A stretch of 64,000 nucleotides of DNA from Eledone cirrhosa (Eukaryota): contig OZ024742.1 in NCBI GenBank assembly GCA_964016885.1, forward strand, positions 322,462,001 through 322,526,000, given 5' to 3'. This document shows, piece after piece, positions 18,418-64,000 of the stretch. The notes beneath the pieces are model-generated. The model had not been told where the DNA came from and did no database searches. It saw only the letters and a list, made by a program, of their open reading frames with translations. The first letter of the stretch is position 1; every line of letters starts with the position of its first letter. The position numbers were made by a program, and so were the translations under genes.

Positions 18418-19884
18418 ATCATCATCATCATCATCAGGTTTAGCGTCCGTGTTCCACGCTTGCATGGGTTTGGACGGGGGTTTTCCCACTTGAGGCAAGA
18501 GTGGTTGTCTTGCTCGCATAGGACTGTCTGGCGGGTTTTCTACAGTTGGATGCCCTTCCTAACACCAACCACATATACAGTGTGGGGCTGGGAGGTTTTT
18601 ACCGTGTTGCCTACACGGCCACATTACAGCGTGGACTGTCTGGCGGGTTTTCTACAGCTGGATGCCCTTCCTAACACCAACCACATTTACAGTGTGGGGC
18701 TGGGAGGTTTTTACCGTGTTGCCTACACGGCCACATTTACAGCGTGGACTGTGTGTTTTTTTGTCGTGACACCTACACGATCTCATTTGTTTCGGCCTGG
18801 ATGTTGTGGGACCAACATAACTGTACATTGAAAGGGGCGGTGTGGATGGGGTGGAGGTGGTGGGACGGGGGGGGTGTTTTGATAGAGATGCCTACTGACT
18901 GTAGTAGATTTTTACTTTGTATTTAGGTAAGGCGGGTCTTCTCTATTACTGAGTACCGCCAAAGGTCTCGGTCCAGTGACATTGTCTTGGAGAGGTGTAA
19001 GCGTGTGAGGTCGGAATTTATCAGCTCGTCCCATGTTTTTCTGGGTCTGCCTACTCCGTGGCTACCGTCTATCTTTATTGCCCTGCACTTTGTTATACAG
19101 CTGTCGTCTTTCATGCGCATCACGTGACCGTACCAACGTAGCCTTCTCTCGAGTAAACAACATCTGATCCCTCTTATTTCTAATTTTTTCCTTAGTTCGT
19201 TTATGCTTTGCCGTTCACGTATATTACTATTGCACATCCAGCCGAGCATGCAAGCTTCGTTCCTCTCTAGTCTGCGTATATCCTCTGCACACAATGCCCA
19301 GGTCTCACTGCCATGCAGCATTGCTGTTCGTATGCAGGCATCGTATAACCTGCCTTTCATTTTTAGGGAGAACCCTCTAGCGGCTAATAGTGGTATAAGC
19401 TCTCTGAACTTTTTCCATCCAGTTCTGACTCTAGCTACTGTACTCTCAGAGCACCCTCCCCCACTGCTGATTTTGTCACCCAGGTAACGGAAGCTGTCCA
19501 CTATTTCTATAGAACCCTCTGCGCAGTTGAAGGAGCTAGTATTTTGTGGGCACTTGCTGCTACTTATTGCACCAGAGCACCGGCCACATGTAAAATCTAT
19601 GTTCTTAGTTAGCTTACCTGTGATCCCACTACATCTTTTATGCACCCATACTTTGCATTTGGGACATAAAATGGAGTTTCTACCTACGCCTTTCCTACAC
19701 ACTGAGCATGGCCATTTCCCAGATGGGACTGCCGCCATATTTTCTTTCCTACAAACTAGAACTTTTGTCTTAGCCAGGTTAATTTTAAGGCCTTTTGATT
19801 CTAGGCCGTGCTTCCATGTTTGGAATTTCTTCTCTAGTTCGGTCATTGATTCAGCTATGAGCGTTAGATCATCTGCGTATAGGA

Positions 19885-19885
<1 letters not shown>
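18418..19885 (-). mobile_element. Young 5'-truncated RTE LINE (RT C-terminal half, 3' UTR and (TGA)n tail) in (TA)n
   Basis: Uninterrupted frame LYADDL...[12 protein letters not shown]...FRYLG...LHGSETW...RRLRWYGHVMRM...GRPRKTW with stop at 18923. The CATCATCAT tail abuts TA repeats. Confidence 0.93.
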
Positions 19886-20914
<1,029 letters not shown>

Positions 20915-20916
<2 letters not shown>

Positions 20917-22306
20917 TGTAAATCTCAAATACGTAAATGTTGGGTCTAACCACCCCATCTCTATAATTAAATCTATCCCTAAAAATATTTCCCTTAGAAT
21001 CTCGGGTCTATCTTCTAACATACAAGTATTTAAGGAACACGCCGAGTACTACGATAACGCCCTTAGTAAAGCAGGCTACCTCAACAAAATAGAGTACATA
21101 GATGGGAACAATCAAAACACCCAAAATAAATCCCACATAGGTAGATATAATAACACAACACCAAACCACACTTACTACCATAGTATGCACACCAGTAAAC
21201 CAACAAACAAAACTAATAGAAAGCGATGCAAAGAGTACTTATGGTATAACCCCGAATACAATAGCTCCATTAGTACAAATTTACCAGTACTCTTCTTTAA
21301 AATAATTAAAAGACATTTTCCCACATCACACAAATACCACAAAATCCTAAACCCTACCACTATAAGACTGTCATACTCTACAGCGTTAAACCTTGAACAA
21401 CACATAAAAAAGATCAATACTAGAAGGTTAAACGAAAACACTAAGAACTTAAGTACAAAGAACCCCAAAAAAACAGTAGACAATACACTACAGAACATAA
21501 ATAAACCACACCTAAGTTCGTCCGCAATACTACTCCAGAGAAAACCCAACGTACACAACTGTAACTGCACCTATCCTGACAACTGCCCCCTCGGCAATAA
21601 CTGCCTGGAAAAAAATATTATTTATAAGTGTACCATTAAATCCGGAGGCAACGAGTGGTATTACGTGGGATCAACGGCAACATCGTTTAAATCTCGATTG
21701 TATAGGCATTCTTACTCAATAAAACACCAGAGCCAAAGAAATGTAACAACTTTAGCAGAGAAAGCTTGGACGCTCAGGGATAGCAATCAAAAGTTTACCC
21801 TAAAATGGGAAAAATTAGCTAAAACCCAAAGCTTTTCCAGGAGCCAAAATTTCTGCAAATTGTGTAATCTTGAGATTTATTACATAATCACACACAAGAA
21901 GAAACTGCTGAATAACAGAATTGAACGAACATTATTCTGCCGTCACAGAACTAAAACCCTTTTTTCCCACTACAAGCCGAATATTACATAAAAGAGGGAC
22001 ATCCCCCAACTATATAAACCTTAATCTAGTTAGAAAAATATAAAAACAATCTCTTTTCAACATATATTAATAACCTTAAATTACCATACTAATAATGAAA
22101 AGATATGCTGATGAGAATAGGTACAAATATGCGATAATGAATGTGTCTAAAAACGTCCATAAGTATGTATATATATGTGAAAATGTATATAAATAAGTAA
22201 ATATATATATATGTTTGATGTGTATAGTTAGATGTAAGTGTATTCATGTATTAAAGTGCTTATATATATATATATATATGTGTGTGTGTATATGTGTGTA
22301 TATATG

Positions 22307-25330: not shown

Positions 25331-25519
25331 CGTTTGACAGACAGTGGTACTGATGCAATAATTGTATTACATAGACCAAGTTAGATAATCAGTTGTTACA
25401 TTATGAAGATGGGGGAGGTGGGAATCAATGATGATTGTACTGTCATGTTATTGAGTGAAAGATCAATCAATTGTTGTTGCCAATCACCTTGGTAACCACT
25501 TATATTGTTGCTGCTGCTA

Positions 25520-28330
25520 CAGTTACTACAACTATTACTGCAACAACCACCACCACTACTACCACCAATTCCACCACTACTACCATCAATTCCACCACTA
25601 CTACCACCAATTCCACCACTACTACCACCAATTCCACCACTACTACCACCAATTCCACCACTACTACCATCAATTCCACCTCTACTACTACCAATTCCAC
25701 CTCTACTACTACCAATTCCACCTCTACTACCACCAACTCCACCTCTACTACCACCACCACCATTACTACTACTACTACCACCACCATTACTACTATTACT
25801 ACCACCACCACCACTACTACTAGCCAACACCACCACTACTACTATTGCTACCACCAGTACTCCTACCATGACCACCACTACTATTACCACCACCACTGTT
25901 ATTACCACCACCACCACTGTTATTACCAACACCACCACCACCACTGTTATTACCAACACCACCACTGCTATTACCAACACCACCACCACTGTTATTACCA
26001 ACACCACCACCACCACCACTGCTATTACCAACACCACCACCACCACTGTTATTACCAACACCACCACCACCACTGTTATTACCAACACCACCACCACCAC
26101 TGCTATTACCAACACCACCACCACCACTGCTATTACCAACACCACCACCACCACTGCTATTACCAACACCACCACCACCACTGTTATTACCAACACCACC
26201 ACCACCACTACTATTACCAACACCACCACCACCACTACTATTACCAACACCACCACCACCACTGCTATTACCAACACCACCACCACCACTGTTATTACCA
26301 ACACCACTACCACCAACACCATCGCCACCACCAACACCATCGCCACCACCATCACCACCACATCGCCACCACCAACACCATCACCACCACCAACACCACC
26401 ACCACTACCAACGCCATCACCACCACATCGCCACCACCAACTCCATCACCAACTCCATCGCCACCACCAACACCATCACGACCACATCGCCACCACCAAC
26501 ACCATCGCCACCACCAACACCACCACCACCACCAACACCACCACCACTACCAACACCATCGCCACCACCAACACCACCACCACCACCAACACCACCACTA
26601 CTACCAACACCATCGCCACCACCAACACCACCAACACCACCACCACTACCAACACCACCACCACCACCAACACCACCACCACTACCAACACCACCACCAC
26701 TACCAACACCACCACCACTACCAACACCACCACCACTACCAACACCACCACCACTACCAACACCATTGCCACCACCAACACCACCACCACCACCAACACC
26801 ACCACCACTACCAACACCACCACCAACACCACCACCACTACCAACACCATTGCCACCACCAACACCACCACCACCACCAACACCACCACTACTACCAACA
26901 CCATCGCCACCACCAACACCATCGCCACCACCACCGCCACCACCAACACCACCACCACCACCAACACCACCACCACCACCAACACCACCACCACTACCAA
27001 CACCACCACCACTACCAACACAACCACCAACACCACCACCACTACCAACACTATCTCTACCACCAACACCACCACCACCACCACCAGCAACACCACCACC
27101 ACCACCACCACCACCAACACCACCACCAACACCACCACCACCACCAACACCACCACCACTACCAACACCACCACCACTACCAACACCACCACCACTACCA
27201 ACACCACCACCAACACCACCACCACTACCAACACCATCGCCACCACCAACACCACCACCACCACCAACACCACCACTACTACCAACACCATCGCCACCAC
27301 CAACACCACCACCACCACCAACACCACCACCACCACCAACACCACCACCACCACCAACACCACCACCACCAACACCACCACCACCACCAACACCACCACC
27401 ACTACCAACACCACCACCACTACCAACACCACCACCAACACCACCACCAACACCACCACCAACACCACCACCACCACCAACACCACCACCACCACCAACA
27501 CCACCACCACCACCACTACCAACACCACCACCACTACCAACACCACCACCAACACCACCACCACTACCAACACCACCACCACCACCAACACCACCACCAC
27601 CACCAACACCACCACCACTACCAACACCACCACCACTACCAACACCACCACCAACACCACCACCACCACCAACACCATCGCCACCACCAACACCACCACC
27701 AACACCACCACTACTACCAACACCATCGCCACCACCACCACCACCACCACCACCACTACCAACACCACCACCACTACCAACACCACCACCAACACCACCA
27801 CCACTACCAACACCATCGCCACCACCACCACTACCAACACCACCACCACTACCAACACCACCACCACTACCAACACCACCACCACTACCAACACCACCAC
27901 CAACACCACCACCACTACCAACACCATCGCCACCACCACTACCAACACCACCACCACCACCAACACCACCACCACCACCACCAACACCACCACCACCACC
28001 ACCAACACCACCACCACCACCACCAACACCACCACCACCACCAACACCACCACCACCACCACCACCACCACCACCAACACCACCACCACCACCACCAACA
28101 CCACCACCACCACCACCAACACCACCACCACTACCAACACCACCACCACTACCAACACCACCACCACCACCACCAACACCACCACCACTACCAACACCAC
28201 CACCACCACCACCACCACCACCACCACCAACACCACCACCACTACCAACACCATCGCCACCACCACCACCACCACCACCAACACCACCACCACTACCAAC
28301 ACCATCACCACCACCATCACCACCACTAAC
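25520..28330. repeat. 2.8-kb complex (ACC)n/(ACT)/(AAC) trinucleotide satellite
   Basis: Seen directly; low-complexity ORFs in several frames on both strands. Confidence 0.95.
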
Positions 28331-28797
28331 AATACTGATACTATTGATTATAGTTATTGTTCTTGCAGCCATCCTCTGACATGTGATGGGTGGTGGTTAT
28401 CAACCATCGATGACTACGTGCATATATGTATTTGTGAGGATGTGCATTTGCATACATTTTTCTGTGTGCATGTGCATGTGACTGCATTTGTGTTAATGTC
28501 TGTGCATATGCGTGTATGTTTCCATGCATATGGCCGAGTGTGTGGGCAGTTGCATATATGCATATTCACACAGAAACTGTCATTTATAGATTTTTGTTTA
28601 CAACTTATGACATAGCTGTGTAGTTAAAGAGTTTACTTCGCAACCACATGGTTTCAGGTTCGATCTCATTGTGTGGCACCTGAGACAAGTGTCTTCTACT
28701 AAAGTGGGCCCTACTGGGAAGAGGGGGGGCGTTGAGAAGGTCCAAGGGGGGTGCTGGTGCCGATATAATAGTATATTAAATATCAAATAATACATAT

Positions 28798-38515: not shown

Positions 38516-38879
38516 CTAGTAAAAGAATAACACAAATACACAATAAAAATTAAATTATATGGAAATTGTATGTAAAATCTATTAAAGGAGAGGGCATATG
38601 AAACTGAACTGGTTGGTAGGGTCTCAGTGAAGCCAGCTGAGTTAGGGATCTGGGTGGAGAGGGCTGTTAGGGATGTTTGTTTTTCTTCTTTGTGTATATG
38701 AGGCACTAATTTGGGTGTGTTTAATTAGTGGATTTTCATGATCACTTGATCACTTACAGATTGATTACCTGTCTTAGCTATAATAAAATGGATAAAATAA
38801 ACACAGTTGTCTAAAGGTATTAAGTGGTGGTGGTGTGTATGTTTGTAGTGGTGGTGGTGCGTATGTTTGTACTACTGGT

Positions 38880-40268
38880 GATGGTGGTGGTTTTTCTAGT
38901 GATGGTGTTGTTGGCTGTGATGGTAGTAATGGTGTTGATAGTTGTGGTGGTGGTAGTAATGGTGTTGTTGGTTGTGGTGCTGGTAGTGATGGTGTTGTTG
39001 GTTGTAGTGCTGTTGGTTGTGGTGCTGGTAGTGATGGTGTTGTTGGTTGTGGTGCTGTTGGTTGTGGTGCTGGTAGTGATGGTGTTGTTGGTTGTGGTGC
39101 TGGTAGTGATGGTGTTGTTGGTTGTGGTGCTGGTAGTGATGGTGTTGTTGGTTGTGGTGCTGTTGGTTGTGGTGCTGTTGGTTGTGGTGCTGTTGGTTGT
39201 GGTGCTGGTAGTGGTGTTGTTGGTTGTGGTGCTGGTAGTGATGGTGTTGTTGGTTGTGGTGCTGTTGATTGTGGTGCTGTTGGTTGTGGTGCTGGTAGTG
39301 GTGTTGTTGGTTGTGGTGCTGGTAGTGATGGTGTTGTTGGTTGTGGTGCTGTTGGTTGTGGTGCTGGTAGTGATGGTGTTGTTGGTTGTGGTGCTGGTAG
39401 TGATGGTGTTGTTGGTTGTGGTGCTGTTGGTTGTGGTGCTGGTAGTGATGGTGTTGTTGGTTGTGGTGCTGGTAGTGATGGTGTTGTTGGTTGTAGTGCT
39501 GTTGGTTGTGGTGCTGGTAGTGATGGTGTTGTTGGTTGTGGTGTTGTTGGTTGTGGTGCTGGTAGTGATGGTGTTGTTGGTTGTGGTGCTGGTAGTGATG
39601 GTGTTGTTGGTTGTGGTGCTGGTAGTGATGGTGTTGTTGGTTGTGGTGCTGGTAGTGATGGTGTTGTTGGTTGTGGTGCTGGTAGTGATGGTGTTGTTGG
39701 TTGTGGTGCTGTTGGTTGTGGTGCTGGTAGTGATGGTGTTGTTGGTTGTAGTGCTGTTGGTTGTGGTGCTGGTAGTGATGGTGTTGTTGGTTGTGGTGCT
39801 GTTGGTTGTGGTGCTGGTAGTGATGGTGTTGTTGGTTGTGGTGCTGGTAGTGATGGTGCTGTTGGTTGTGGTGCTGTTGGTTGTGGTGCTGGTAGTGATG
39901 GTGTTGTTGGTTGTGGTGTTGTTGGTTGTGGTGCTGGTAGTGATGGTGTTGTTGGTTGTGGTGTTGTTGGTTGTGGTGCTGGTAGTGATGGTGTTGTTGG
40001 TTGTGGTGTTGTTGGTTGTGGTGCTGGTAGTGATGGTGTTGTTGGTTGTGGTGCTGGTAGTGATGGTGTTGTTGGTTGTGGTGCTGGTAGTGATGGTGTT
40101 GTTGGTTGTGGTGCTGGTAGTGATGGTGTTGTTGGTTGTGGTGTTGTTGGTTGTGGTGCTGGTAGTGATGGTGTTGTTGGTTGTGGTGCTGGTAGTGATG
40201 GTGTTGTTGGTTGTGGTGCTGGTAGTGATGGTGTTGTTGGTTGTGGTGTTGTTGGTTGTATTGTTGGG
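38880..40268. repeat. Minisatellite of interspersed 30-bp (GGTTGTGGTGCTGGTAGTGATGGTGTTGTT) and 15-bp units
   Basis: Seen directly (GCGAGSDGVV / GCGAV periodicity in the ORF track). Confidence 0.95.
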
Positions 40269-40577
40269 TTATTTTAATAGGAGATAAATGTAGGGGAGTT
40301 GGGTGTGAGGAATGTTTTTCACTACACATTTCATGGTGGAAGGAAACACTATACATACACACACACTATATACACACACACACATGCATATGCCCTCACT
40401 ACATACACATGCTCACGCCACATGCACTCACTACACACACTATACACATATGCATACATGCAAGTGTGCGCACTATACAGACAACCATCAGAAATCTTTC
40501 TTCTGTATGATGGATGTTTACAGGTTTAATGGAATTATTCTGTGAACTGTACAGGGAATTGTCATTAAAGGTGCCAA

Positions 40578-41252
40578 ACCATCACCACCACCACCGTCAC
40601 TACCACCACCACCACCACCGTCACTACCACCACCACCACCACCGTCACTACCACCACCACCACCACCGTCACTACCACCACCACCACCACCGTCACTACC
40701 ACCACCACCACCACCACCACCGTCACTACCACCACCACCACCACCACCACCGTCACTACCACCACCACCACCGTCACTACCACCACCACCACCGTCACTA
40801 CCACCACCACCACCATCACTACCACCACCACCGTCACTACCACCACCGTCACTACCACCACCACCACCGTCACTACCACCACCACCACCACCGTCACTAC
40901 CACCACCACCACCACCGTCACTACCACCACCACCACCGTCACTACCACCACCACCACCACCACCGTCACTACCACCACCACCACCACCACCGTCACTACC
41001 ACCACCACCACCACCACCGTCACTCCCACCACCACCGTCACTACCACCACCACCGTCACTACCACCACCACCACCACCGTCACTACCACCACCACCACCG
41101 TCACTACCACCACCACCACCGTCACTACCACCACCACCACCACCACCGTCACTACCACCACCACCACCACCACCACCACCACCACCGTCACTACCACCAC
41201 CACCACCGTCACTACAACCACCACCGTCACTACCACCACCGACACTACCATC
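40578..41252. repeat. (CAC)n-CGTCACTAC compound repeat
   Basis: Seen directly. Confidence 0.95.
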
Positions 41253-42534
41253 ATCATTAGCATTGCCATAATTAATGTTAGCCCCCCACCCCTGTACACT
41301 TATGAGTGAGGTAGTGAGAGAAAGATGAAATAACTGGAGGCGGTGATTGGATGACATAATATCAGGGGAGATAACTACTGTTGTCATATTTTCCTCCTAA
41401 TGACACATGGTTGTTTAGACACTTTGACATAAAGAAATCATTATCTTAGCTCCAGTACCGAGTGAGAAAATGCCACTGAAGATGAATAAAGATCCTGAAA
41501 TACTAGTGTTTGGTGTACTCACACGGTTACTGAGGTAGTTTCAAAATAATCAGTTTAAAATACCTGTTTATTTTTTTATATACGTCCCTAACCATGCTCT
41601 GTTAGTGTATACTGTTAATATTCATATTGGTATATTGGTATCGCTTTGTATTTCATATAGATAGTGGTGGTAGTGATGGTGGTGTATATATATATGGGGG
41701 GGGGGGGGGTGATGTATGTGTGTAGGGGATGGAGAAGTGGTGGCAGTGATGGAGATACTTTCGTTTCAAAATGAGAATATCAGTTAAGTTAAATTTAAAA
41801 CAGATCTACTTTTGTGGGAAAGGAATAACCCTTGACTCTTGACGGAGTAGTGGCACCGTCCTGACATATGGTGTCTTAGGCATTTTAAACCTGGTGGAGC
41901 CTATTCCTCTCCAGTTCTGAAAACAGCCAATTTTTTTTCAGAGAAGGTTGGGGAATAGCTTTCAGTACTGGACAGGTAATATATCAACCTCGAAAGAATG
42001 AAAGGCAAAGTTGACCATGGCGGTATTTGAAATCAGTGCAGTAAGCCAGAATAAATACAGAAGCATTTAATCCAAACTACTCTGACTCAGTAGAACATGT
42101 AACAATTATATATACTCTTTTCTTCTTTTATTAGCTTTAGTCATTTGATTGCAGCCATGCTGAGGTACTGCCTTTACAATGTATTATGTATATATATATG
42201 TATGTATGTGTGTGTGTGTGTGTAATGAGCATCCAGAGCATTAAATAATTGAACAACATAAAACATCTATCTAGCTGTTGTTGGTTGTTGTCAACATGTT
42301 CATGTCAGTTTTCAACAATCCTTACTATCAACATAAACTATAAACAGCTGCTACTAACCATTCACTCCACTTATATAGCTATGGGATCAATTGTGACAAT
42401 GTAAATAAATAATAGTTTAACACTTTGAGACACATTGGTAGGCTTAGTATTCAAACGTAAAAAAAGGGAAATATATTCTCTATCAACAAAATCAAAATCT
42501 CAATTATAGGAGTTAGACAAAGAAAAGTATATAT

Positions 42535-42648
42535 AGGTGCAGATATGGCTGTTTGGTTAAGGAGCCACTTCACAATCATGTGGTTTAGGGTGCAGTCATG
42601 TTTCATGGCACTGTGGACATGTCATATATAACTTCAAGTCGACCGGTG
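42535..42648 (+). mobile_element. 5' half of a family C SINE split by the Transib-like element (3' half at 44791-44840)
   Basis: Joining ...TCGAC-CRGTG-TCTTTTAAGGGGAATTTGGTAGAC restores colinearity with 35105-35138. Confidence 0.7.
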
Positions 42649-42686
42649 CACATTGCACCTAGAGTGGGAAAATATTATTTTTTAAG

Positions 42687-42870
42687 GGCAGTGGATTGGC
42701 AGTATCGGTAGAGGGTCGGACGCCATGCTTTCCAGCATAGTTACGCCCCTTTACAATCTGAGTTCAAATCCCGCCGAGGTTGACTTTGCCTTTCATCCTT
42801 ACGGGGTCGATAAAATAAAGTAGCAGTAATGCACTGGGTAATTGCTGGACTTGTGCCTAAAATAGAAACA
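42687..42870 (+). mobile_element. Young family A SINE inserted 38 bp inside the transposon end, 13-bp TSD
   Basis: TSD ATTATTTTTTAAG at 42674-42686 and 42871-42883. Confidence 0.88.
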
Positions 42871-43679
42871 ATTATTTTTTAAGTTTTTCCTGTTATTTTT
42901 TATTGTAAATTTTCTGTTGAATAAGACTCTTTAGGAGAATAATAATAAAAAAAAAAAAACAGCTAAAAAGATCGAATCTAAAGAATTTTATGATAATTTA
43001 AAGTTAGTAATTATGCAGTTCTTTTGCACAAAAAATAGTTAACAAAAATCCACAAAATATCTTGAAAAATCATCCATATAAAATATCAAAGCCAATAAAC
43101 CAGAGATTGAACTGGCACTTTTCTGAAAGATAATTTATTGAATTTTAGACATTTGTATCCTGCTAAGTGTAGTTTTTAAAGTAGTTTAACAAAAATCAAA
43201 CAACATTTAGAAATGTAAAAGTTTGTTGTAATGAAATTATTCCATTTTTGCTCTAAGAAAGTTTTCATGGTACTCAATACAATTATACTCAACTGGGCTG
43301 AAATGTTTAATAGAGATATTTAGAGACATTTCATTATCCCAGTGTCTAATTCAGGGTAGTCAGGTGCTTTTGGCACTGTTATGTCTAAAATAGTCTCCAT
43401 ATGATAGGGACTTGATGTTGAGCAATAATTGACATTTAGAAATAATATAGAAGCTTTGCAGTAACCAATACATATGTATGAGAACAGAAAAGATTATACA
43501 TTTTGAAACTGAAAGCATGTATCAGTACAGACTTTTAATCTAATACAGATATAACATTTTCTAGTGCTCCACAAGTTAAATACTCAATATACTCATACTC
43601 AATGTCTATGTAAAATACATGGGGGCAATTTTGCTTTCCTCTAGTGTTGAAATTGAAACATTTTTATGTTTAAGTAACT

Positions 43680-44395
43680 GAGCTGTGTCTATTTCTCCAC
43701 AAATGGAGCAACTAGGGTGAGGTCTATTTTTATGCAATTTCTGGATGAGACATTATAAGCATCCTTTTGAAGATGTCATTAATGTTGTCTTTTAACTGAA
43801 AACTGACGAGATCTTGCAGTTGTTCCGCTCTGGAATGATCTGTTTGTTTCAACTTTCAAATGGATTTTCATTCCATTTCGCAATTGACTGCCCACCATTC
43901 CATTAAAAAAACTTTCCCAGCTGTGAGCACATATTCGAAGGAATGGTGGAATTATAACCACCCATTAGAAGCCTCTTTCATCCAGAAATTAGTTTTTTCT
44001 GTGTAACATTAAATCTATCCCAAATGCCTTCAGTCTGTCAAACCTTACCTTCTTCTCATTCACTGATTGTGACATTGAGGATAACATTGTTCAGAGACAA
44101 TCTCATAATTGTCCTTGTCTTCTTTGTTCAAAATGGGGGAACATATGTTTTGGTAGTTTTTTGGACTGAAAAATTGGTCAGCTAATGGTCCCGTATTAGT
44201 GTTCCCACTTATTCCACTGGGTGAGTCCATTTGAATTCCGGTGATTGACCAGATATGGTCAATCCACTGTTTGGCCTGCTGAACAAACATTTTCAGCTTC
44301 ACTCTGTTTTTTGACTGGCAACCAAATGATACAAAATCTTTTGTGCATAGTATAATGATCAGTTTAAAGTGAAGGACTGAGAAACAATGCAAATT
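43680..44395 (-). pseudogene. Transib/RAG1-like transposase C-terminal half (frameshifts, stops)
   Basis: Ordered motifs: CFSVLHFKL; TGIQMDSPSGISGNTNTGPLADQFFSP; WVVIIPPFLRICAHSW; SIAKWNENPFES*NK; ARSRQFS; DIFKRMLIMSHP; CSICGEI. Confidence 0.72.
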
Positions 44396-46589
44396 TGCTT
44401 TTATGTTTTTGTGGCACTGACCCTGCCTTCACAAAAGTTTTTGTCTTAAAGTTTATCACTGGAAACAAAATTGATGTTATACTGCTGTAGAAAGACACTC
44501 CTTCTCTAAGTATGCCAAATTCATCCCTATGAAGTAATTGATAAAATTTACAAATATAATACATTTATTTTTCTGCCAACCACAAATCACAACAATTAAA
44601 CAATTTTTGCAGCAAATGCCAGAAAAAGAAATCAAGTTATATCTTCAAAATTAAATGCGTTCTTTGAATAGTTTTAACTCCATTAGTTGTAGCTTGCCAA
44701 AACACTTCCAACGAGCTATAAATGACTTCTGTTCAATTTATTGTGGAGATATGAATCTATTCCTAAATTTAGCATTCTGGGCAGAATATGCAGTGTCTTT
44801 TAAGGGGAATTTGGTAGACAGAATCTGCAGAAGCTTAGCATATATATATATATATATATATTGTCTATTGGAAAAAGTCCCTTTTATCCTTGTTTGCAAG
44901 GTTCGATGGGTCATCACCGGCTATGCCGATATTTAATCGGTGCTATTGACCTCTCAGATGGGCCAAGAGCTGCGTCTTGTTTACATACATTCCTGAACTC
45001 TGCAGAGTGCACTGGGTGCATTTTATTTTAGTACCAGCACTAAGGATGTTGTCTTGTCTTTGACACACCTGAAGAGTTCTCTTGATTCTTTGGCAAATTT
45101 TCTATGGCTGGATGCCCTTCTTATAACCAAATATTTTACAGAGTGTACTGTGTGCATTTATCATGTAGTTTGCCAACAGTAGAGAGGATGCCGTGCCCTT
45201 GACACAATTCAACCTTTACTTTGGCATGGTTTCTACAGCTTGATGTCCTTTCTTTTCCCAACCACCTTACATATCTTGGCTGTGTGCAGAGGCACAAGGA
45301 GCCTACTTCAAAGGGTTAACATGTGAACCCCATCAGGTACATAATTTTTTTTCCCCAGCTTAAAGTCAAATAATTTTTCAACAGACTTCATTTATATATG
45401 TATGTATTCATGTGAGTGTTTACATTTGTGTCCATGGTTATGTCCTGTTCATTAGTGGTTTGACAAAAAAGAGATCCATAAAATAAGATCTAAACTTGAA
45501 AAAAAGTTCTGGAGTCGATTATGATTAACTAAATCAAGGCAGTACATGTGCATGGCCGCAGTTTAATGACTGAAACCAATAAAAGAATTGTATGTTGTTT
45601 GCATGAGAGAAGATTGTGCTGGTATAGACATGAAATGAGTATGAATGATGATTGCTGAGTGAAGAAGTGCCAAAAGTTGCAAGTAGAAAGAAGCTTTGGA
45701 AGGGGAAAATCAAATAAGTATGACATAAGCAGAAACTACAGCTTACAGGGAGCTGACAAAGGAAAGAGAAAAGTAGAGAGATGTTGTACTAGTGAGGACT
45801 TGTTTAACCTCTGCAAACATAATAGAAATCAGATGTGTCCAAAAGAGAAGATTGTACTGTTACAGACATGTATAACCTGTGATTGATAATCACTGGGTGA
45901 AAAAGTAGCAGGAGTTCCAAATGGGATGAAGCTTTTGAAAAGGAAGACCAAGAAAGACTTTTGTGTAGGTGGTGTAAGTTGACTTCAAGAAATTAGTTCT
46001 CAAAGGAAATGACAAAAAGAAGCATATGGAGAGGACTCGGCTAACCCATGCAAGTATGGAAAAATGGACATAAAAACTGGTGATGGTGATTTCAGTGATA
46101 TGGGGCAGGGATAGAGAGAGCATGTAGTCTTTCACAACTATAAGAATCTTATGTGTCAGACAGATTTGACAGATAAAATAATTGTTTCTGTTGAGGTTCT
46201 TTACTCCTTGTTAAATGCTTCGATTTTGGACTTATCAAAGGATCTTTAGTTGGTGGTGTCTGTTTATTGTCTCAGTCAATATCTGTCTGTATGTGTGTGT
46301 AAGAGGCATATTTGAATGTGATGTATTTGAGCCTACATATGTACCTGTGTGTATGCGTGTGTCTATTAGTGTCAGCTGGTACAAGCAGCAGCTGTCTTCT
46401 GTCCCCACCCCAATCCACTTTCTATCTTTCATCACTTATCTTGATTTTGTGTAGAGAAACACCAGATGAATGATCTCATTCTCTTTCTCTCTCTTTTATA
46501 TACCATTCAATAGAAAAACTTGTTAAATGATTGTGTGTGTGTACATCTATCTATCTGCTTGTCCATCTTTCCATTCATTCATCCGTCTT

Positions 46590-47533: not shown

Positions 47534-50500
47534 TGGGATAGACACATGTGCTGAGCTCGCTCGGTAAGTTTCGTTTAAATTTATCTGGAAATTGTGAACT
47601 GTAAACTTTCATTTTTGTACCATTTTGTAGAGAGACTGCCAGGTCAAACTTTGATCTGGTCAGTCTCTCAAAATATTCTACGCCTTTAGGCGAAATAGTG
47701 TTTTAAAAATTTAATCTTTAGAAAAATTTCGAAAAATCCTATTTTAATAAAAATGGCTGAAGCATCTTCACCAAAATTCGAAGGAGGAAAGGGGAAGATA
47801 AGCTTACAGCTTCCCCCTGCCACTGTCACAGTAGCAGAGGTCAAAAAGAAAGGTTAGCCAGAGGAAGGATTTTCTCCACCTGTTGACCGACAACTTGACG
47901 TTGCCATGGCAACAACCCAAAGAACCAGCGGCAACAGCAACAACAACAATGCGACGGACGAAAACAACACCAATAACAATAACAACAACAAGACCAATAA
48001 CTGTGATAACAACAACACCACCAACTACAACAGCAACACAAACAAAAAAAATTTCTCCTTCGCTGAGACGGCAAGGAAAACCCTCGACTATCTGCCAGGA
48101 GATATAACCAAAGTGAAGGAGCTACTGACAGATGCCAAAAAATATATAGTGTATGGGGAAAATGGTTCATTCACGATCCATTCCCCCCCGGAACTAAAAA
48201 GCCAGAGACTCCTAAACACTGCCATGTTTAGGACAATCTGGAATAAAAGCAAAAAACCAGCTCAACCATCACAGAGTGAGATAGAGCTGGTTTTAAAAGA
48301 CGTCATGAAGGACATCACCTTCATTTAGAAGGATAGACTCTACGGGAGTCTATCCATTCTCATGAAGAACAGGGACACAGCAGTGAAACTGTCCATCAAA
48401 CCAGTCACATACACCTTCTACCCTACGTACATGGGTAGAAGAACAGAAAACATAAAAATCCACACCATCCTGCCGATTATGGACATATGGTGGGTTTTGA
48501 CAGGTTTCCTGGACCTGGATGATGACACGCTGGTGTCCATGGGAAAGGCATTGGGTGACGCGTTCAGTGGAACGAGCCTCGAACTTGTAGTTCAAATGAG
48601 GCCTGAAAGGATCGCCCAGATCCCTGAACGCGTCATACTGGATGATCAAACTTTCATCAACATTACCGTTGAGGGTAGGCGGCCCTCGTGTTACCTCTGC
48701 GGAACCAGAGGTCACCTGAGGGCTGTCTGTCCCCAACTTAATAAGAAAACCCCAATCCTGCCTACACCACCAACAACTGCACAACCAACACAATCACCAC
48801 AACTACCACTACAAAAACAACCACCACAGCTCAAACCAAAACAAAACAATGTCCAACCCATCCCCCTCCACTCAAAAAACAAAAACAATTTCCAAAACAC
48901 CCGCACCGCAAACACAACCCGAAAATATACCCCTCCCCTCCAACGCGGAAGATGACCCTAGTTCGTCGTCAGACGAGGAGGAGCACTTCCACACAATCAA
49001 AAGAAAAAAAAAACGCACCTCAGACACACAAATGAAAAAAACCCCTCCCCAAAACATAACACTGACACCAACACAAAAGAGCTCACAACAGCAAACAAAA
49101 AACACCACACAAAAACAAAAACATGCATACACATACATAAACACAAGAAACAAAAAACTGTTAAACATTGTGTACAACAACAATCTAATAAAAACACAAG
49201 GGCCTAACTTCACCCAGGCAGGGGATTTGCCCCACTTAAAAATGATTAAGGCCCCACAGGACACCTATAAAACTTTAAAAAACAACTTTAAAGAGGACGT
49301 GGGACCCCCTGCGTCGGGCCCATTAACCGCGTCCTCCTAAAAGACTACCCCACCCCCTCCCCAAACACCCACACAACTCCAAACTCCCCAACCACACAAC
49401 ACACTGATGCCCCTACACCTCCACAAACCACCACCCCACCCAACAACCCATCCCTCACCCTAATGGAAATTGTGCAGCCCGATACCTGGGACGCAGAGAG
49501 GTAAGTGTCTTTTCTCTTCACCACCAACATGGCCATGCTAAGAGTAGGCTGTTTAAATGCGCGTGGCCTGGGCTCAACTTGGAAGCAAGCAATGCTTCTA
49601 AATGACCTCAGGTCACAACGTATAGATGTGATGGTTATTTGCGAGGCCCGGATCAGCAACGTGCAACAGCTGGCCCCCACCTTTGATGACTTTGAGATGC
49701 ACGCATCTCTCTGTCAGGGGGTGGGGTTGTCATTCTGCTGCAAAAACATCTGGGTCTCGCAACACAGATGGTACATTTGGACCCGGAGGGTCGACTAGTG
49801 GTTCTGGACCTTGGCAGTGGTAAAGGCGGAGCGTTTAGGTTGGTAGCCGCCTACGGCCCTTTCGGGTCAATGCGGCCGGACTTCTTCCATCGTCTGGAGG
49901 CTTTTCTAGGGACGTCCCGCTCCTTGCTATTAGTGGGGGACTGGAATGGTATCCTAGATGCACGCTGGGACTACGTAGGGGCCTGTCCCGATAGAGAGGG
50001 GTGTAATAGCCTCAAAGGGTTAATCGGTCGATTTGACCTGGCCGATAGATATCGACTAGATTTTCCGACTGCGCCAACCTGGACTTGGGCAAATCGTAGC
50101 GGATCATCTAGGTCGTACCTAGATAGGTTCTTAGTTAGAATTAAGGATAAGGACTTTTTAAGTTGTCCAAAAATGCGCATGGTTGGCTATTCAGACCACA
50201 AGTTAGTGACCTGCATGGTCAACCTTGACAGAACTCATAGACAGGGACCTGGTTACTGGAAGCTCAACTTGTCCTTACCGGCAAGTTAGGCTTACAGGGA
50301 CCGGATTAGCACTTTAGTTAAGGAGCAGTTGACGGGCGCCATCGTCAACAGCAGGTGGTGGGGATCTCTCAAAAGAGAGATTAGAGTAGTCTCTATAGAA
50401 TTTAGTAAGGAGTTAGCCTCAAATAGAAATAGGAAGGAAAGGGAGTTGGTAGATAGTGTAGAAGAGGCAATTAGAAGCGGCGACGTGGCCAGAGTGCTAG

Positions 50501-52489
50501 CGTCGAGAACGGCCCTGGGCCAGTTCTTCGACACGAAGGCTGCATCGTCCGAAGCAAAATACGTGCTGTGGGAAACGAGGGGACCAAAGCTGTTAGCTGG
50601 GCCCGCGTGACAGAAGCCAAAAGAGGGAGCAGATCCACTATCCGGTCTTTGCGAGACCAGGATGGACGGGTGATCCTTGAACCTAAGCAGATGTGCGAGG
50701 CTTTTCAAAAGCAGTTTGCCGGATTGTTCGGAAGGGGCGGGGAGCCGGTTGGGGATGTGGACTTCGGTCCATACCTCGACGGCCTGCCGCGTCTCTCGGA
50801 CAGGGAGGCGAAGTCCTGTGAGGAGCCGATTTCAGCCGCTGAGATAGAGGACGTGCTGAGCCAATGCGGCAAACGCAAATCCTCGGGTCTCGATGGTCTT
50901 CCATACGAACTATATCTAGCTATGCCGGACTTCTTCCTCGATCTCCTCGAGGCGGTCTACTGCAACTGGCAACAGAACGGGAGAATTCCCTGTGCTGTGA
51001 CCAAGGGCGTAGTCACGCTAGTGAGGAAGGACGAGAACAAGGGGGACGATATAAATAATTTCAGGCCCATAACTCTGCTAAATACAGAGTTACAGATTTT
51101 GGCCAAGGTGCTAGCAAAGAGGTTGGTGCTTGTCGTGGGTAACCTGGTGGGAGATGCGCAGACATGTGCTATCCCGTCCAGGTCCATCCACGACAACCTC
51201 CACCTCATGCGATACATCATAGAGAGGGTTGGGAACGAACCCGTCTTTGGTGGGGCCCTGATCAACTTGGATCAATCTAAGGCATTCGATAGGGTCGACC
51301 ATGGTTACCTGGATGCGGTGCTAGCGGCGGCAGGCTTTGGACCCGTTTTCAGGGGCTGGATCAATGCCATGCACAGCAGCCGCATCTGCTCTAGGGTCAA
51401 GGTGAACGGCTACCTCTCGGAGCCATTCGAAATCGCGCGGTCCATCCGACAGGGGTGTCCTATCTCCCTTCTGTATATAGTGACTCTAGAGCCACTGCTG
51501 CGGAAGTTGGAGTTGTTGCAGGGCATCCCAACCGGGATTGCGGAAAGCGGTGTCAGCCTACGCCGATGACGTAACAGTAATGGTGTCGACGGCCTCGGAA
51601 ATCGGGGCGATCGGCACCTTACTGGAGGAGTACGAAAGGTTTACAGGGGCTAAGCTGAACCGGGACAAGTCGATCGGTCTGCAACTCGGCACGTGGAGGG
51701 GCAGATCGATGCCCTCCGATGGCGTCGTCGGGCGCTGGACGGAGGGCCCGGTGAAGTTGCTCGGGGTCTGGTTCGGACCAGACCTCCAGGTGGAGAAGAA
51801 CTGGGGTGAGGTAACGAACAGGGTGTTTGCACTGACCCAGAAGTGGGCCGAGTGCAAACTGTCCCTAAAAGGTCGTGCGGAGGTGGCGAACACTTTCCCA
51901 GACTCATCTCACTCACCGAGCTGCAATCCTGGGTCAAGCAAATACCGAGAAAACTGGGCGCCTGGCACATCGAGTGTGCCCAGGCGCTCACGGCTCTCTG
52001 GCAGGCGGACCCGGCTGTCAGTGGAGAATCCACCTCATCTGAAAGGACTGAGGTCAGACACCTTTCTCTCTGGCCAACAACTGGTCCGTTTCTTCCGATA
52101 TCATTTCGGAAGAAGGATCAGGATGGAGAGAGAGGTGCTGCACTCCAGCCGTTTTTATGAAAGATGGGTGAAAGTGGCAAGAATGGCCCGTGTGAATGGG
52201 CCTTCACTCTACATCAGACTATAGGTGAGGAAGATGAAAGACCAAGGGAGCACCCCTTCTCTGTGCTCCTGAGGAAAAGGGTTGCACACTTTTTTTCGGG
52301 GGTGTGTGCGACTCCCCAAGGCGCCTCCTCTCTATTCAGGACTTTGTTATAAATTTTATTTTTTGTTATATTTTATTTTATTTTTATATATTGTTATTGC
52401 CTCCTCCTTATTGAGGACGCCTTGTTTTATAAACTACCCCATTGTACTTGTCCCACTTTTGATGCCCTGGTGGCAAATAAAAGAAACAT

Positions 52490-52490: not shown

Positions 52491-55649
<3,159 letters not shown>

Positions 55650-55650
<1 letters not shown>

Positions 55651-57309
55651 ATCATCATCATCATCAGCGTTTAACGTCCGTGTTCCACGCTTGCATGGGT
55701 TTGGACGGGGTAGTCCCACTTGAGGCAAGAGTGATTGTCTTGCTCGCATAGGACTGTCTGGCAGGTTTTCTACAGTTGGATGCCCTTCCTAACACCAACC
55801 ACATTTACAGTGTGGGTCTGGGAGGTTTTTACCGTGTTGCCTACACGGCCACATTACAGCGTGGACTGTGTGTTTTTTTGTCGTGACACCTACACGATCT
55901 CATTTGTTTCGGCCTCGATGGCGCGGCACCAACATAACTTTACATAGAACGGGGTGGTGTGGATCGGGTGGGGGTGGTGGGACGGGGTGTATTTGTTAGA
56001 GATGCCTACTGGCTGGAGTAGGTTTTACTATATATTTAGGTAAGGCGGGTCTTCTCTGTTACTGAGTACCGCCAAAGGTCTCGGTCCAGTGACATTGTCT
56101 TGGAGAGGTGTAAGTGTGTGATGTCGGAGTTTATCAGCTCGTCCAGGTTTTTCTAGGTCTGCTATTCCGTGACTACCGTCTATCTTTATTGCCCTGCACT
56201 TTGTTATACAGCTATCGACTTTCATGCGCTCACGTGTCCATACCAAACGTAGCCTTCTCTCGAGTAAACAACATCTGATCCCTCTTATCTCTAATTTTTT
56301 CCTTAGTTCGTTTATGCTTTGCCGTTCACGTATATTACTGTTACACATCCAGCGGAGCATGCAAGCTTCGTTCCTCTCTAGTCTGCGTATATCCTCTGCA
56401 CACAATGCCCAGGTCTCACTGCCATGCAGCATTGCTGTTCGTATGCAGGCATCGTACAACCTGCCTTTCATTTTTAGTGAGAACCCTTTAGCAGCTAATA
56501 GTGGTATAAGCTCTCTGAACTTTTTCCAACCAGTTCTGACTCTAGCTACAGTACTTTCAGAGCACCCTCCCCACTGCTGATTTTATCGCCCAGGTAACGG
56601 AAGCTGTCCACTATTTCTATAGAACCCTCTGCGCAATTGAAAGAGCTAGTAGTTTGTGGGCACTTGCTGCTACTTATTGCACCAGAGCACCGGCCACATG
56701 TAAAATCTATGTTCTTAGTTAGCCTACCTGTGATCCCACTACATCTTTTATGCACCCATACTTTGCATTTAGGACATAAAATGGAGTTTCTACCTACGCC
56801 TTTCCTACACACCGAGCACGACCATTTCCCAGAAGGGACCGCCGCCTTGTTTTCTTCCTACAAACTAGTACTTTGGTCTTAGCCAGGTTAATTTTAAGTC
56901 CTTTTGACTCTAGGCCGTGCTTCCATGTTTGGAATTTCTTCTCTAGCTCGGCATTGATTCCGCTATGAGTGTCAGGTCGTCTGCGTATAGGAGTTCCCAT
57001 GGGCAGCCTGTCTTGAACTCCTCTGTTATGGCCTGAAGGGCAATAATAAATAGTAGTGGACTGAGAACAGAGCCCTGATGGACGCCGACTTTTACGCTAA
57101 ACTCTTCACTATATTCGTTGTTAATTCTAACCTTGCTGACTGTTTCTTTATACATGGCTTGTATAGCCCTCACAAGCCATTCGTCAACGCCTAGTTTTCT
57201 AAGAGCCACCAGATAATGGAGCGGGGGACTCTGTCGAAGGCTTTCTCCAAGTCGACAAAAGCTAAGTAGAGGGGTTTACCTTTAGCTAGGTACTTCTCTT
57301 GTAGTTGTC

Positions 57310-57310
<1 letters not shown>
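55650..57310 (-). mobile_element. 5'-truncated RTE LINE copy (frameshifted), both ends in (TA)n
   Basis: RQLQEKY...FVDLEKAFDRVPR...GVHQGSVLSPLLF...LLYADDL, 3' UTR and (CAT)n tail. Confidence 0.93.
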
Positions 57311-62870
<5,560 letters not shown>

Positions 62871-63243
62871 CTAAGAACATAGATTTTACATGTGGCCGGT
62901 GTTCTGGTGCAATAGGCAGCAGCAAGTGCCCACAAAATACTAGCTCTTTCAATTGCGCAGAGGGTTCTATAGAAATAGTGGACAGCTTCCGTTACCTGGG
63001 CGATAAAATCAGCAGTGAGGGAGGGTGCTCTGAAAGTACTGTAGCTAGAGTCAGAACTGGTTGGAAAAAGTTCAGAGAGCTTATACCACTATTAGCTGCT
63101 AAAGGGTTCTCCCTAAAAATGAAGGCAGGTTGTACGATGCCTGCATACGAACAGCAATGTGCATGGCAGTGAGACCTGGGCATTGTGTGCAGAGGATATA
63201 CGCAGACTAGAGAGGAACGAAGCTTGCATGCTCCGCTGGATGT
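62871..63243 (+). mobile_element. Internal RTE fragment in + orientation
   Basis: [14 protein letters not shown]...FRELIPLL...[26 protein letters not shown]. Confidence 0.9.
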
Positions 63244-63259
63244 CAGAACTGGTTGGAAA

Positions 63260-64000
63260 CACAATGCCCAGGTCTCACTGCCATGCAACATTGCTGTTCG
63301 TATGCAGGCATCGTACAACCTGCCTTTCATTTTTAGGGAGAACCCTTTAGCGGCTAATAGTGGTATAAGCTCTCTGAACTTTTTCCACCCAGTTCTGACT
63401 CTAGCTACTGTACTTTCAGAGCACCCTCCCCCACTGCTGATTTTGTCACCCAGGTAACGTAAGCTGTCCACTATTTCTATAGAACCCTCTGCGCAGTTGA
63501 AAGAGCTAGTATTTGTGGGCACTTGCTGCTACTTATTGCACCAGAGCACCGGCCACATGTAAAATCTATGTTCTTAGTTAGCTTACCTGTGATCCCACTA
63601 CATCTTTTATGCACCCATACTTTGCATTTGGGACACAAAATAGAGTTTCTACCTACGCCTTTCCTACACACTGAGCATGGCCACTTCCCGGAAGGGACCG
63701 CCGCCTTATTTTCTTTCTTGTTTTCTTTCTTACAAACTAGAACTTTAGTCTTAGCCAGGTTAATTTTAAGGCTTTTGTTTCTATGCCGTGCTTCCATGTT
63801 TGGAATTTCTTCTCTAGCTCGGCCATTGATTCAGCTATGAGTGTTAGGTCATCTGCGTATAGGAGTTCCCATGGGCAACCGGTCTTGAACTCCTCTGTTA
63901 TAGCCTGAAGGGCAATAATAAATAGTAGGGGGCTGAGAACAGAGCCCTGATGGACGCCAACTTTTACGCTAAACTCTTCACTATATTCGTTGTTAATTCT
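63260..64000 (-). mobile_element. RTE LINE copy lacking its 3' end; continues beyond the window
   Basis: Colinear with 56401-57128 (QGSVLSP, YADD, PHD-like insert). Confidence 0.92.

Follow-up and report, generated by a model that had tools for sequence, protein, structure and literature searches.

A dead Transib-superfamily copy in Eledone cirrhosa and intact relatives with RAG1-like features and a predicted His-ended zinc tail

Described relatives of the element

Among described systems, the closest are the Subgroup I Transibs, defined by Tao et al. 2022 (PMC9435367) as carrying asymmetric ends, the equivalent of RAG1 α11–α12, and a CTT1 tail. These elements, exemplified in ctenophores and Hydra, were proposed in the same study to be possible intermediates between Transib and RAG1L (PMC9435367). 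Asymmetric ends, a CCGHC tail, and the GRP motif are all known in Transibs according to the accessible part of Martin et al. 2023. HzTransib from Helicoverpa zea (6PQN/6PQX), which belongs to Subgroup II, differs in having neither α11–α12 nor a zinc-knuckle tail and in its shorter D-to-E distance; the accessible text of PMC1131882 gives this distance as 206–214 residues in Transib and 253 in RAG1. The RAGL context is treated in the available portions of Martin et al. 2020 and Kapitonov and Koonin 2015. RAGL elements such as amphioxus ProtoRAG possess RAG2L, a zinc-finger region at the N terminus, and the final Cys of the tail, and vertebrate RAG1 is domesticated, RAG2-dependent, and has an acidic tail. 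In molluscs, a genome survey recovered just one Transib ORF (PMC10294476).

A dead, internally deleted Transib copy

The window, a stretch of 64,000 nucleotides from E. cirrhosa, contains a decayed Transib element on its minus strand (Table 1). The majority sequence of the family matched this element in five blastn pieces of 85–95% identity, and the ends and flanks were read directly. Searches with the intact relative P0169 (tblastn) identified the transposase relic with E values of 1.6e-30 and 1.8e-12. The relic is interrupted by frameshifts and stops, and both catalytic Asp residues and the ZnC2 pair have been deleted. The copy is dead and would yield no working protein. Its 5' deletion junction is unlike that of the majority form and continues as in another copy, L070, which makes the deletion an independent one. 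The inserted repeat near the 3' end is a high-copy sequence that also lies within L070 and near many other loci.

Table 1. Features of the Transib element in the window
Feature	Positions	Strand	Remarks
Whole decayed, internally deleted Transib element	42649..44790	minus	2,142 bp including inserted repeat; blastn of family majority sequence against window
5' terminal inverted repeat core, decayed	44773..44790	minus	family ends start CACAGTG
3' terminal inverted repeat core	42649..42666	minus	
5' target-site duplication copy	44791..44795	minus	CACTG, 5 bp
3' target-site duplication copy	42644..42648	minus	CACCG, one mismatch
Transposase relic	43606..44429	minus	about residues 427–711 of P0169; tblastn of P0169 against window
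Equivalent of RAG1 α11–α12, zinc-binding domain	44093..44158	minus	
ZnH2 motif PPFLRICAHSW	43917..43949	minus	first His to Leu in window copy
Catalytic-Glu motif	43843..43887	minus	Glu codon 43855–43857, GAA
C-terminal tail relic	43606..43710	minus	CX2C, broken GH, conserved later His, terminal segment
Unrelated inserted repeat, ~180 bp, near 3' end	42684..42864		gap in element match

The motifs reported by a first-pass annotation, made from the letters alone, could all be read back: SIAKWNENPFES*NK at 43887–43843 with GAA at 43855–57, and, across three minus-strand frames, PPFLRICAHSW (43949–43917), ARSRQFS, DIFKRMLIMSHP, and CSICGEI (43710–43690). The Glu codon corresponds to E627 of P0169 and aligns to the motifs of HzTransib and RAG1, and where the window copy has a stop after ES, 16 of 24 copies read TGG (Trp) and 3 read TGA. 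The annotation had also taken the Trp/ES/NK spacing as that of RAG1. The spacing is real but not specific to RAG1, because E-x-x-N-K is found in HzTransib as well, and the Trp ahead of the Glu motif was rejected as a RAG1 marker because W, Y, or F occupies this position among relatives; neither feature therefore marks closeness to RAG1. Its proposal that one restored base would recreate the tail GH did not hold, as the window copy is three bases short relative to the intact reading and in frame gives CSICGEID-TAQLLKHK.

A dispersed family of broken copies

When the 3.0-Gb genome was searched with a 1-kb query, at least 70 matches were obtained, several per locus. Thirty loci were fetched and 29 aligned; L027 was dropped because its position coincides with that of L020. 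The genome contains at least 29 broken copies, a dispersed family in which at least four distinct deletions occur. Among the genome matches listed, none was an open copy of full length. At 2,668 bp, the majority form bears CACAGTG at both ends; copies are 78–93% identical to it and on average 82% identical to one another (304 pairs). The copies seen here are old and broken, in contrast to the Kodama/Nozomi Transib pair, which according to the accessible text of the preprint is young and has an intact partner (bioRxiv 10.64898/2026.08.26.747230).

Individual copies retain parts that the window copy has lost, such as the region of the first catalytic Asp (L005) or the N terminus (L070), where GKP stands in place of GRP. 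The second catalytic Asp is kept in 13 of 19 copies and the catalytic Glu in 21 of 25. At the ZnH2 site, 11 of 24 copies have the first His and another 11 have Leu instead; the second His is found in 11 of 25, and the two tail Cys residues are kept in 18 of 22 and 17 of 21. Target-site duplications of 5 bp were examined at six loci where both tips were detected automatically: three are perfect, one has a single mismatch, and two have three mismatches. At four of the six, 0–1 mismatch was counted at 5 bp versus 3–5 mismatches at 4 or 6 bp.

By analogy with HzTransib and BbeRAG1L, the parent enzyme would bind two ends, nick and cleave through a hairpin at the heptamer, and insert with a 5-bp stagger. 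Lesions shared between copies suggest that most were mobilized in trans from defective templates and decayed afterwards.

Intact relatives of the transposase

Searches with a single natural fragment of 156 aa found no match in a word-index protein search or in the PDB, profiles of fragments found none in the PDB or Pfam, and a search of the ESM Atlas gave scores of 0.79 only. A profile built from 18 natural fragments of other family copies was then run against 1.84 billion representative proteins and recovered 169 at E ≤ 1e-3; with P0002 as query, 38 proteins were found, P0002 counted in. A functional name was attached to none of the ten relatives looked up. Chance resemblance was rejected on the basis of these 169 proteins together with the stronger match of P0169 to the window (E 1.6e-30).

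The nearest relative, P0169 (711 aa), is 72–74% identical to the family across two long core segments. Full-length relatives in public assemblies are ~710 aa long (702–761 aa), with a catalytic triad that in P0169 is D250/D364/E627. The DDE motifs and both zinc pairs are conserved in 25 full-length relatives, the GRP motif in 21 of these, and the D-to-E distance is 254–264 aa in 24, the remaining one being mis-parsed. Over the ~90 residues ahead of GRP, no conserved Cys/His pattern was detected in the 25 relatives, and helices are predicted there in the P0169 model. These intact proteins bear out the initial reading of a Transib/RAG1-superfamily transposase with a catalytic Glu and a CX2CX3GH tail.

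Placement relative to Transib, RAG1L, and RAG1

A profile of 25 sequences scored 162 bits with HzTransib, 67 with amphioxus BbeRAG1L, and 46–58 with RAG1 chains; against the PDB, the corresponding E values were 1.3e-46 for HzTransib, the best sequence match, 7.2e-18 for BbeRAG1L, and 4.6e-15 to 1.9e-11 for RAG1. These scores assign the protein to Transib rather than RAG1L. Identity is ~16% to RAGL proteins and 16–19% to vertebrate RAG1.

A structure was predicted for P0169 (m6840436834eb, pLDDT 84.5, with 58–77 in the tail part). The modeled fold gave Z scores of 29.3 with HzTransib (2.9 Å over 470 residues), 28.5 with RAG1, and 26.2 with BbeRAG1L (6B40); Foldseek ranked RAG1 first by a small margin, and the Z values tie. 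The model aligns to the RAG1 nonamer-binding domain (NBD) from residue 91, with an NBD-like segment against RAG1 390–460, and to BbeRAG1L up to tail residue 698. The predicted fold thus places the protein in the superfamily without separating Transib from RAG1, and it is the sequence that points to Transib. In the α11–α12 stretch, the clade profile aligns to RAG1 and BbeRAG1L without a gap and to HzTransib with one.

The family shares its DDE motifs and 5-bp duplication with HzTransib. It shares CX2CX3GH, α11–α12, heptamer ends, and the 5-bp duplication with BbeRAG1L/ProtoRAG and other RAGL elements, and, like the recombination signal sequences (RSS) of vertebrate RAG1, its ends start with the RSS heptamer. 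With Subgroup I Transibs it has in common what is likely a single transposase, α11–α12, GRP, a CTT1-type tail as far as CX2CX3GH, and asymmetric ends. The presence of RAG1L features without a counterpart in insect Transibs, as first noticed in the window, was upheld in spirit.

It is very unlikely that the element descends from a RAGL transposon that lost RAG2L, its protein being a diverged RAG1L. The RAG1-length D-to-E distance, α11–α12, the tail, and the NBD-like segment would fit such a descent, and RAG2L loss is an alternative put forward in the accessible text of PMC7204232. By profile score, however, the core is not nearer to RAG1/RAG1L than to Transib, the HzTransib score exceeding that of BbeRAG1L by 95 bits; the MIDGK and GNTN motifs are of Transib type; the N terminus shows neither a RAG1-type Cys-rich region nor a non-core zinc-finger region of the RAG1L kind; and Pfam RAG1 matched only 1 of 7 clade proteins scanned. 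Membership in another DDE family without relation to Transib, for instance Chapaev, hAT, or P, was rejected and has a practically negligible probability: the P element and Hermes transposases do match the fold weakly (Z 11.9 and 7.2), but Transib/RAG1 is by far the best match in both sequence and fold, and the CACAGTG ends and 5-bp duplication likewise speak against it.

We regard it as highly probable that the locus represents a Transib-superfamily element, here in a dead copy with internal deletions, which likely encoded a transposase only and likely belongs among the RAG1-like Subgroup I Transibs. Subgroup I is indicated by GRP, α11–α12, a D-to-E distance of 254–264 aa, and a CX2CX3GH tail taken together; by these features the placement is likely. 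The tree, a quick reconstruction of 52 rows with no outgroup, consists of unnamed relatives, none of them RAG1, RAG1L, or a published Transib. When DNA patterns were used to look for an outgroup from Subgroup II, viral contigs and this genome gave nothing, and genome contigs gave one unrelated hit. In the quick tree, a long branch with full support leads to a clade of 35 rows, away from ctenophore Subgroup I-like proteins, and the family falls in a 20-row clade with an SH-aLRT value of 99.

The long branch, together with ESWNK at the catalytic Glu, sets the clade apart from Subgroup I Transibs, and a separate third Transib lineage beyond both published subgroups, sharing ancestral RAG1-like features, is conceivable although rather unlikely. 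Besides the branch, the clade is only 28% identical by profile to proteins resembling Subgroup I, and its diagnostic words WNK, LIQGD, and LLQGD gave no matches in the supplement text of Tao et al. 2022, whose figures may show the clade. Set against this, the clade shows three features stated for Subgroup I, its AHSWEL motif is common to published Subgroup I proteins, and the tree has no outgroup. Of the idea raised at the outset, that the family lies between Transib and RAG1L, the RAG1L features stood; such a class had already been published (PMC9435367), and by sequence the family is far nearer to HzTransib than to RAG1 or RAG1L.

The C-terminal tail

The relatives carry the CX2CX3GH part of a CTT1 tail, but the last Cys is present in 0 of 20 copies and 0 of the 19 nearest proteins. 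In these 19 natural proteins of the family's clade, a His lies six residues past GH in 17 and seven in 2. The 12-row sister clade has the full CX2CX3GHX4C in 11 of its 12 members. The final Cys, which was at first described as not evident in the window, is missing throughout a clade whose sister clade keeps it, and its absence is not decay. Judging from the sequences compared, the His-ended tail likely arose as a derived form within a single clade, and it distinguishes the family's sub-clade from Subgroup I Transibs. The conservation of the later His suggests that it may bind zinc, and a tail with such a Cys–Cys–His–His site would, by comparison with HzTransib and BbeRAG1L, clamp DNA just inside the heptamer. 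This predicted replacement of the last zinc-tail Cys by His is the only unusual trait of the family.

In the P0169 model, residues 699–711, past the knuckle, align with HzTransib up to its last part (chain residue 497), as read from the range ends only. The model hints at a clade with both tail types, a knuckle and an HzTransib-like terminal segment.

Among the genomic copies, an in-frame GH is present in 1 of 20, and the His six residues past that position in 13 of 19. That the parent without the tail base was itself active, the knuckle being dispensable in this family, is unlikely. Such a parent would account for the 19 of 20 copies missing the in-frame GH, copies with different deletions among them, and for the shifted tail frame, which remains open for ~30 codons; in addition, P0189, P0190, and P0022, which form their own 3-row clade, have no zinc knuckle and intact DDE motifs. 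Other lesions common to the copies suggest trans-mobilization instead, and the tail in its original frame retains 63% identity to P0169, so that the shift dates from the time of amplification or shortly before it.

Element ends and the search for a RAG2-like partner

The two ends share 16 of their first 18 bp and then diverge from each other (7 of 24), whereas like ends match across elements after bp 18 (17–19 of 24). The terminal inverted repeats (TIRs) are thus asymmetric, with end-specific sequence after bp 18 that is conserved between elements; a search of the ends for a common second block at two spacings gave none. Near-identical ends occur in the metagenome locus L053, together with a 5-bp duplication free of mismatches, and L052 has the same 3' end. 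In both the Cys-ended L053 and the His-ended L052, the first 18 bp of end sequence are identical to those of the family. On its metagenome contig, L053:1693–4042 is a non-autonomous relative with internal tandem repeats in place of the 5' two-thirds of the ORF.

In agreement with the first-pass annotation, which saw no RAG2-like partner in the window, no RAG2-like gene was found: 21 frames of the 3' regions of three copies and two relatives gave no Pfam match at all, a result weakened by the decayed DNA, and L052 has no other ORF of 100 aa. No more than 0.9–1.05 kb lies downstream of the stop codon. From the partial elements seen, none of which combines full length, both ends, and an intact ORF, a single gene is likely.

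Other repeats in the window

A fragmented LINE occupies 47858–52224 (plus strand), with a zinc-knuckle ORF1-like part and endonuclease and reverse-transcriptase frames, and appears L1/Tx1-like by eye. Near-identical 3' fragments of an RTE-type LINE reverse-transcriptase ORF lie at 18923–19900 (minus), 56028–56582 (minus), and 62880–63528. An open frame at ~20950–21991 (plus) ends in a GIY-YIG-like endonuclease, suggesting what we take to be a Penelope-like element. Kilobase-scale trinucleotide and (AT)n arrays are found at 25400–28400, 38800–41300, and 53000–63000, and the window contains 200 N.

Meaning of the locus

The class of Transib–RAG1L intermediates is already known, and the His-ended tail is a modest new variant within it. 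Neither the clade nor the His-ended tail turned up among the listed results of searches of the Transib literature, although the tree and alignment figures of Tao et al. 2022 may show either. A bolder reading, which we hold to be unlikely, is that the clade is an undescribed Transib lineage and the closest single-gene relative of RAG1/RAG1L, joining a GRP nonamer-binding segment, RAG2-binding helices, a His-ended knuckle, and possibly an HzTransib-like terminal helix; if this were true, its intact members could directly stand in for the enzyme by which RAG2 was captured.

The Transib locus is itself a dead repeat; what makes it valuable is that it leads to at least 25 transposases of full length (~710 aa). 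These relatives carry features that the accessible part of Martin et al. 2023 ascribes to the ancestor of the RAG transposon. Their tails occur naturally as Cys-ended, His-ended, and absent variants, two of which sit on an identical 18-bp end sequence, and together the relatives and tail variants permit direct tests of the role of the tail and of RAG2 stimulation.
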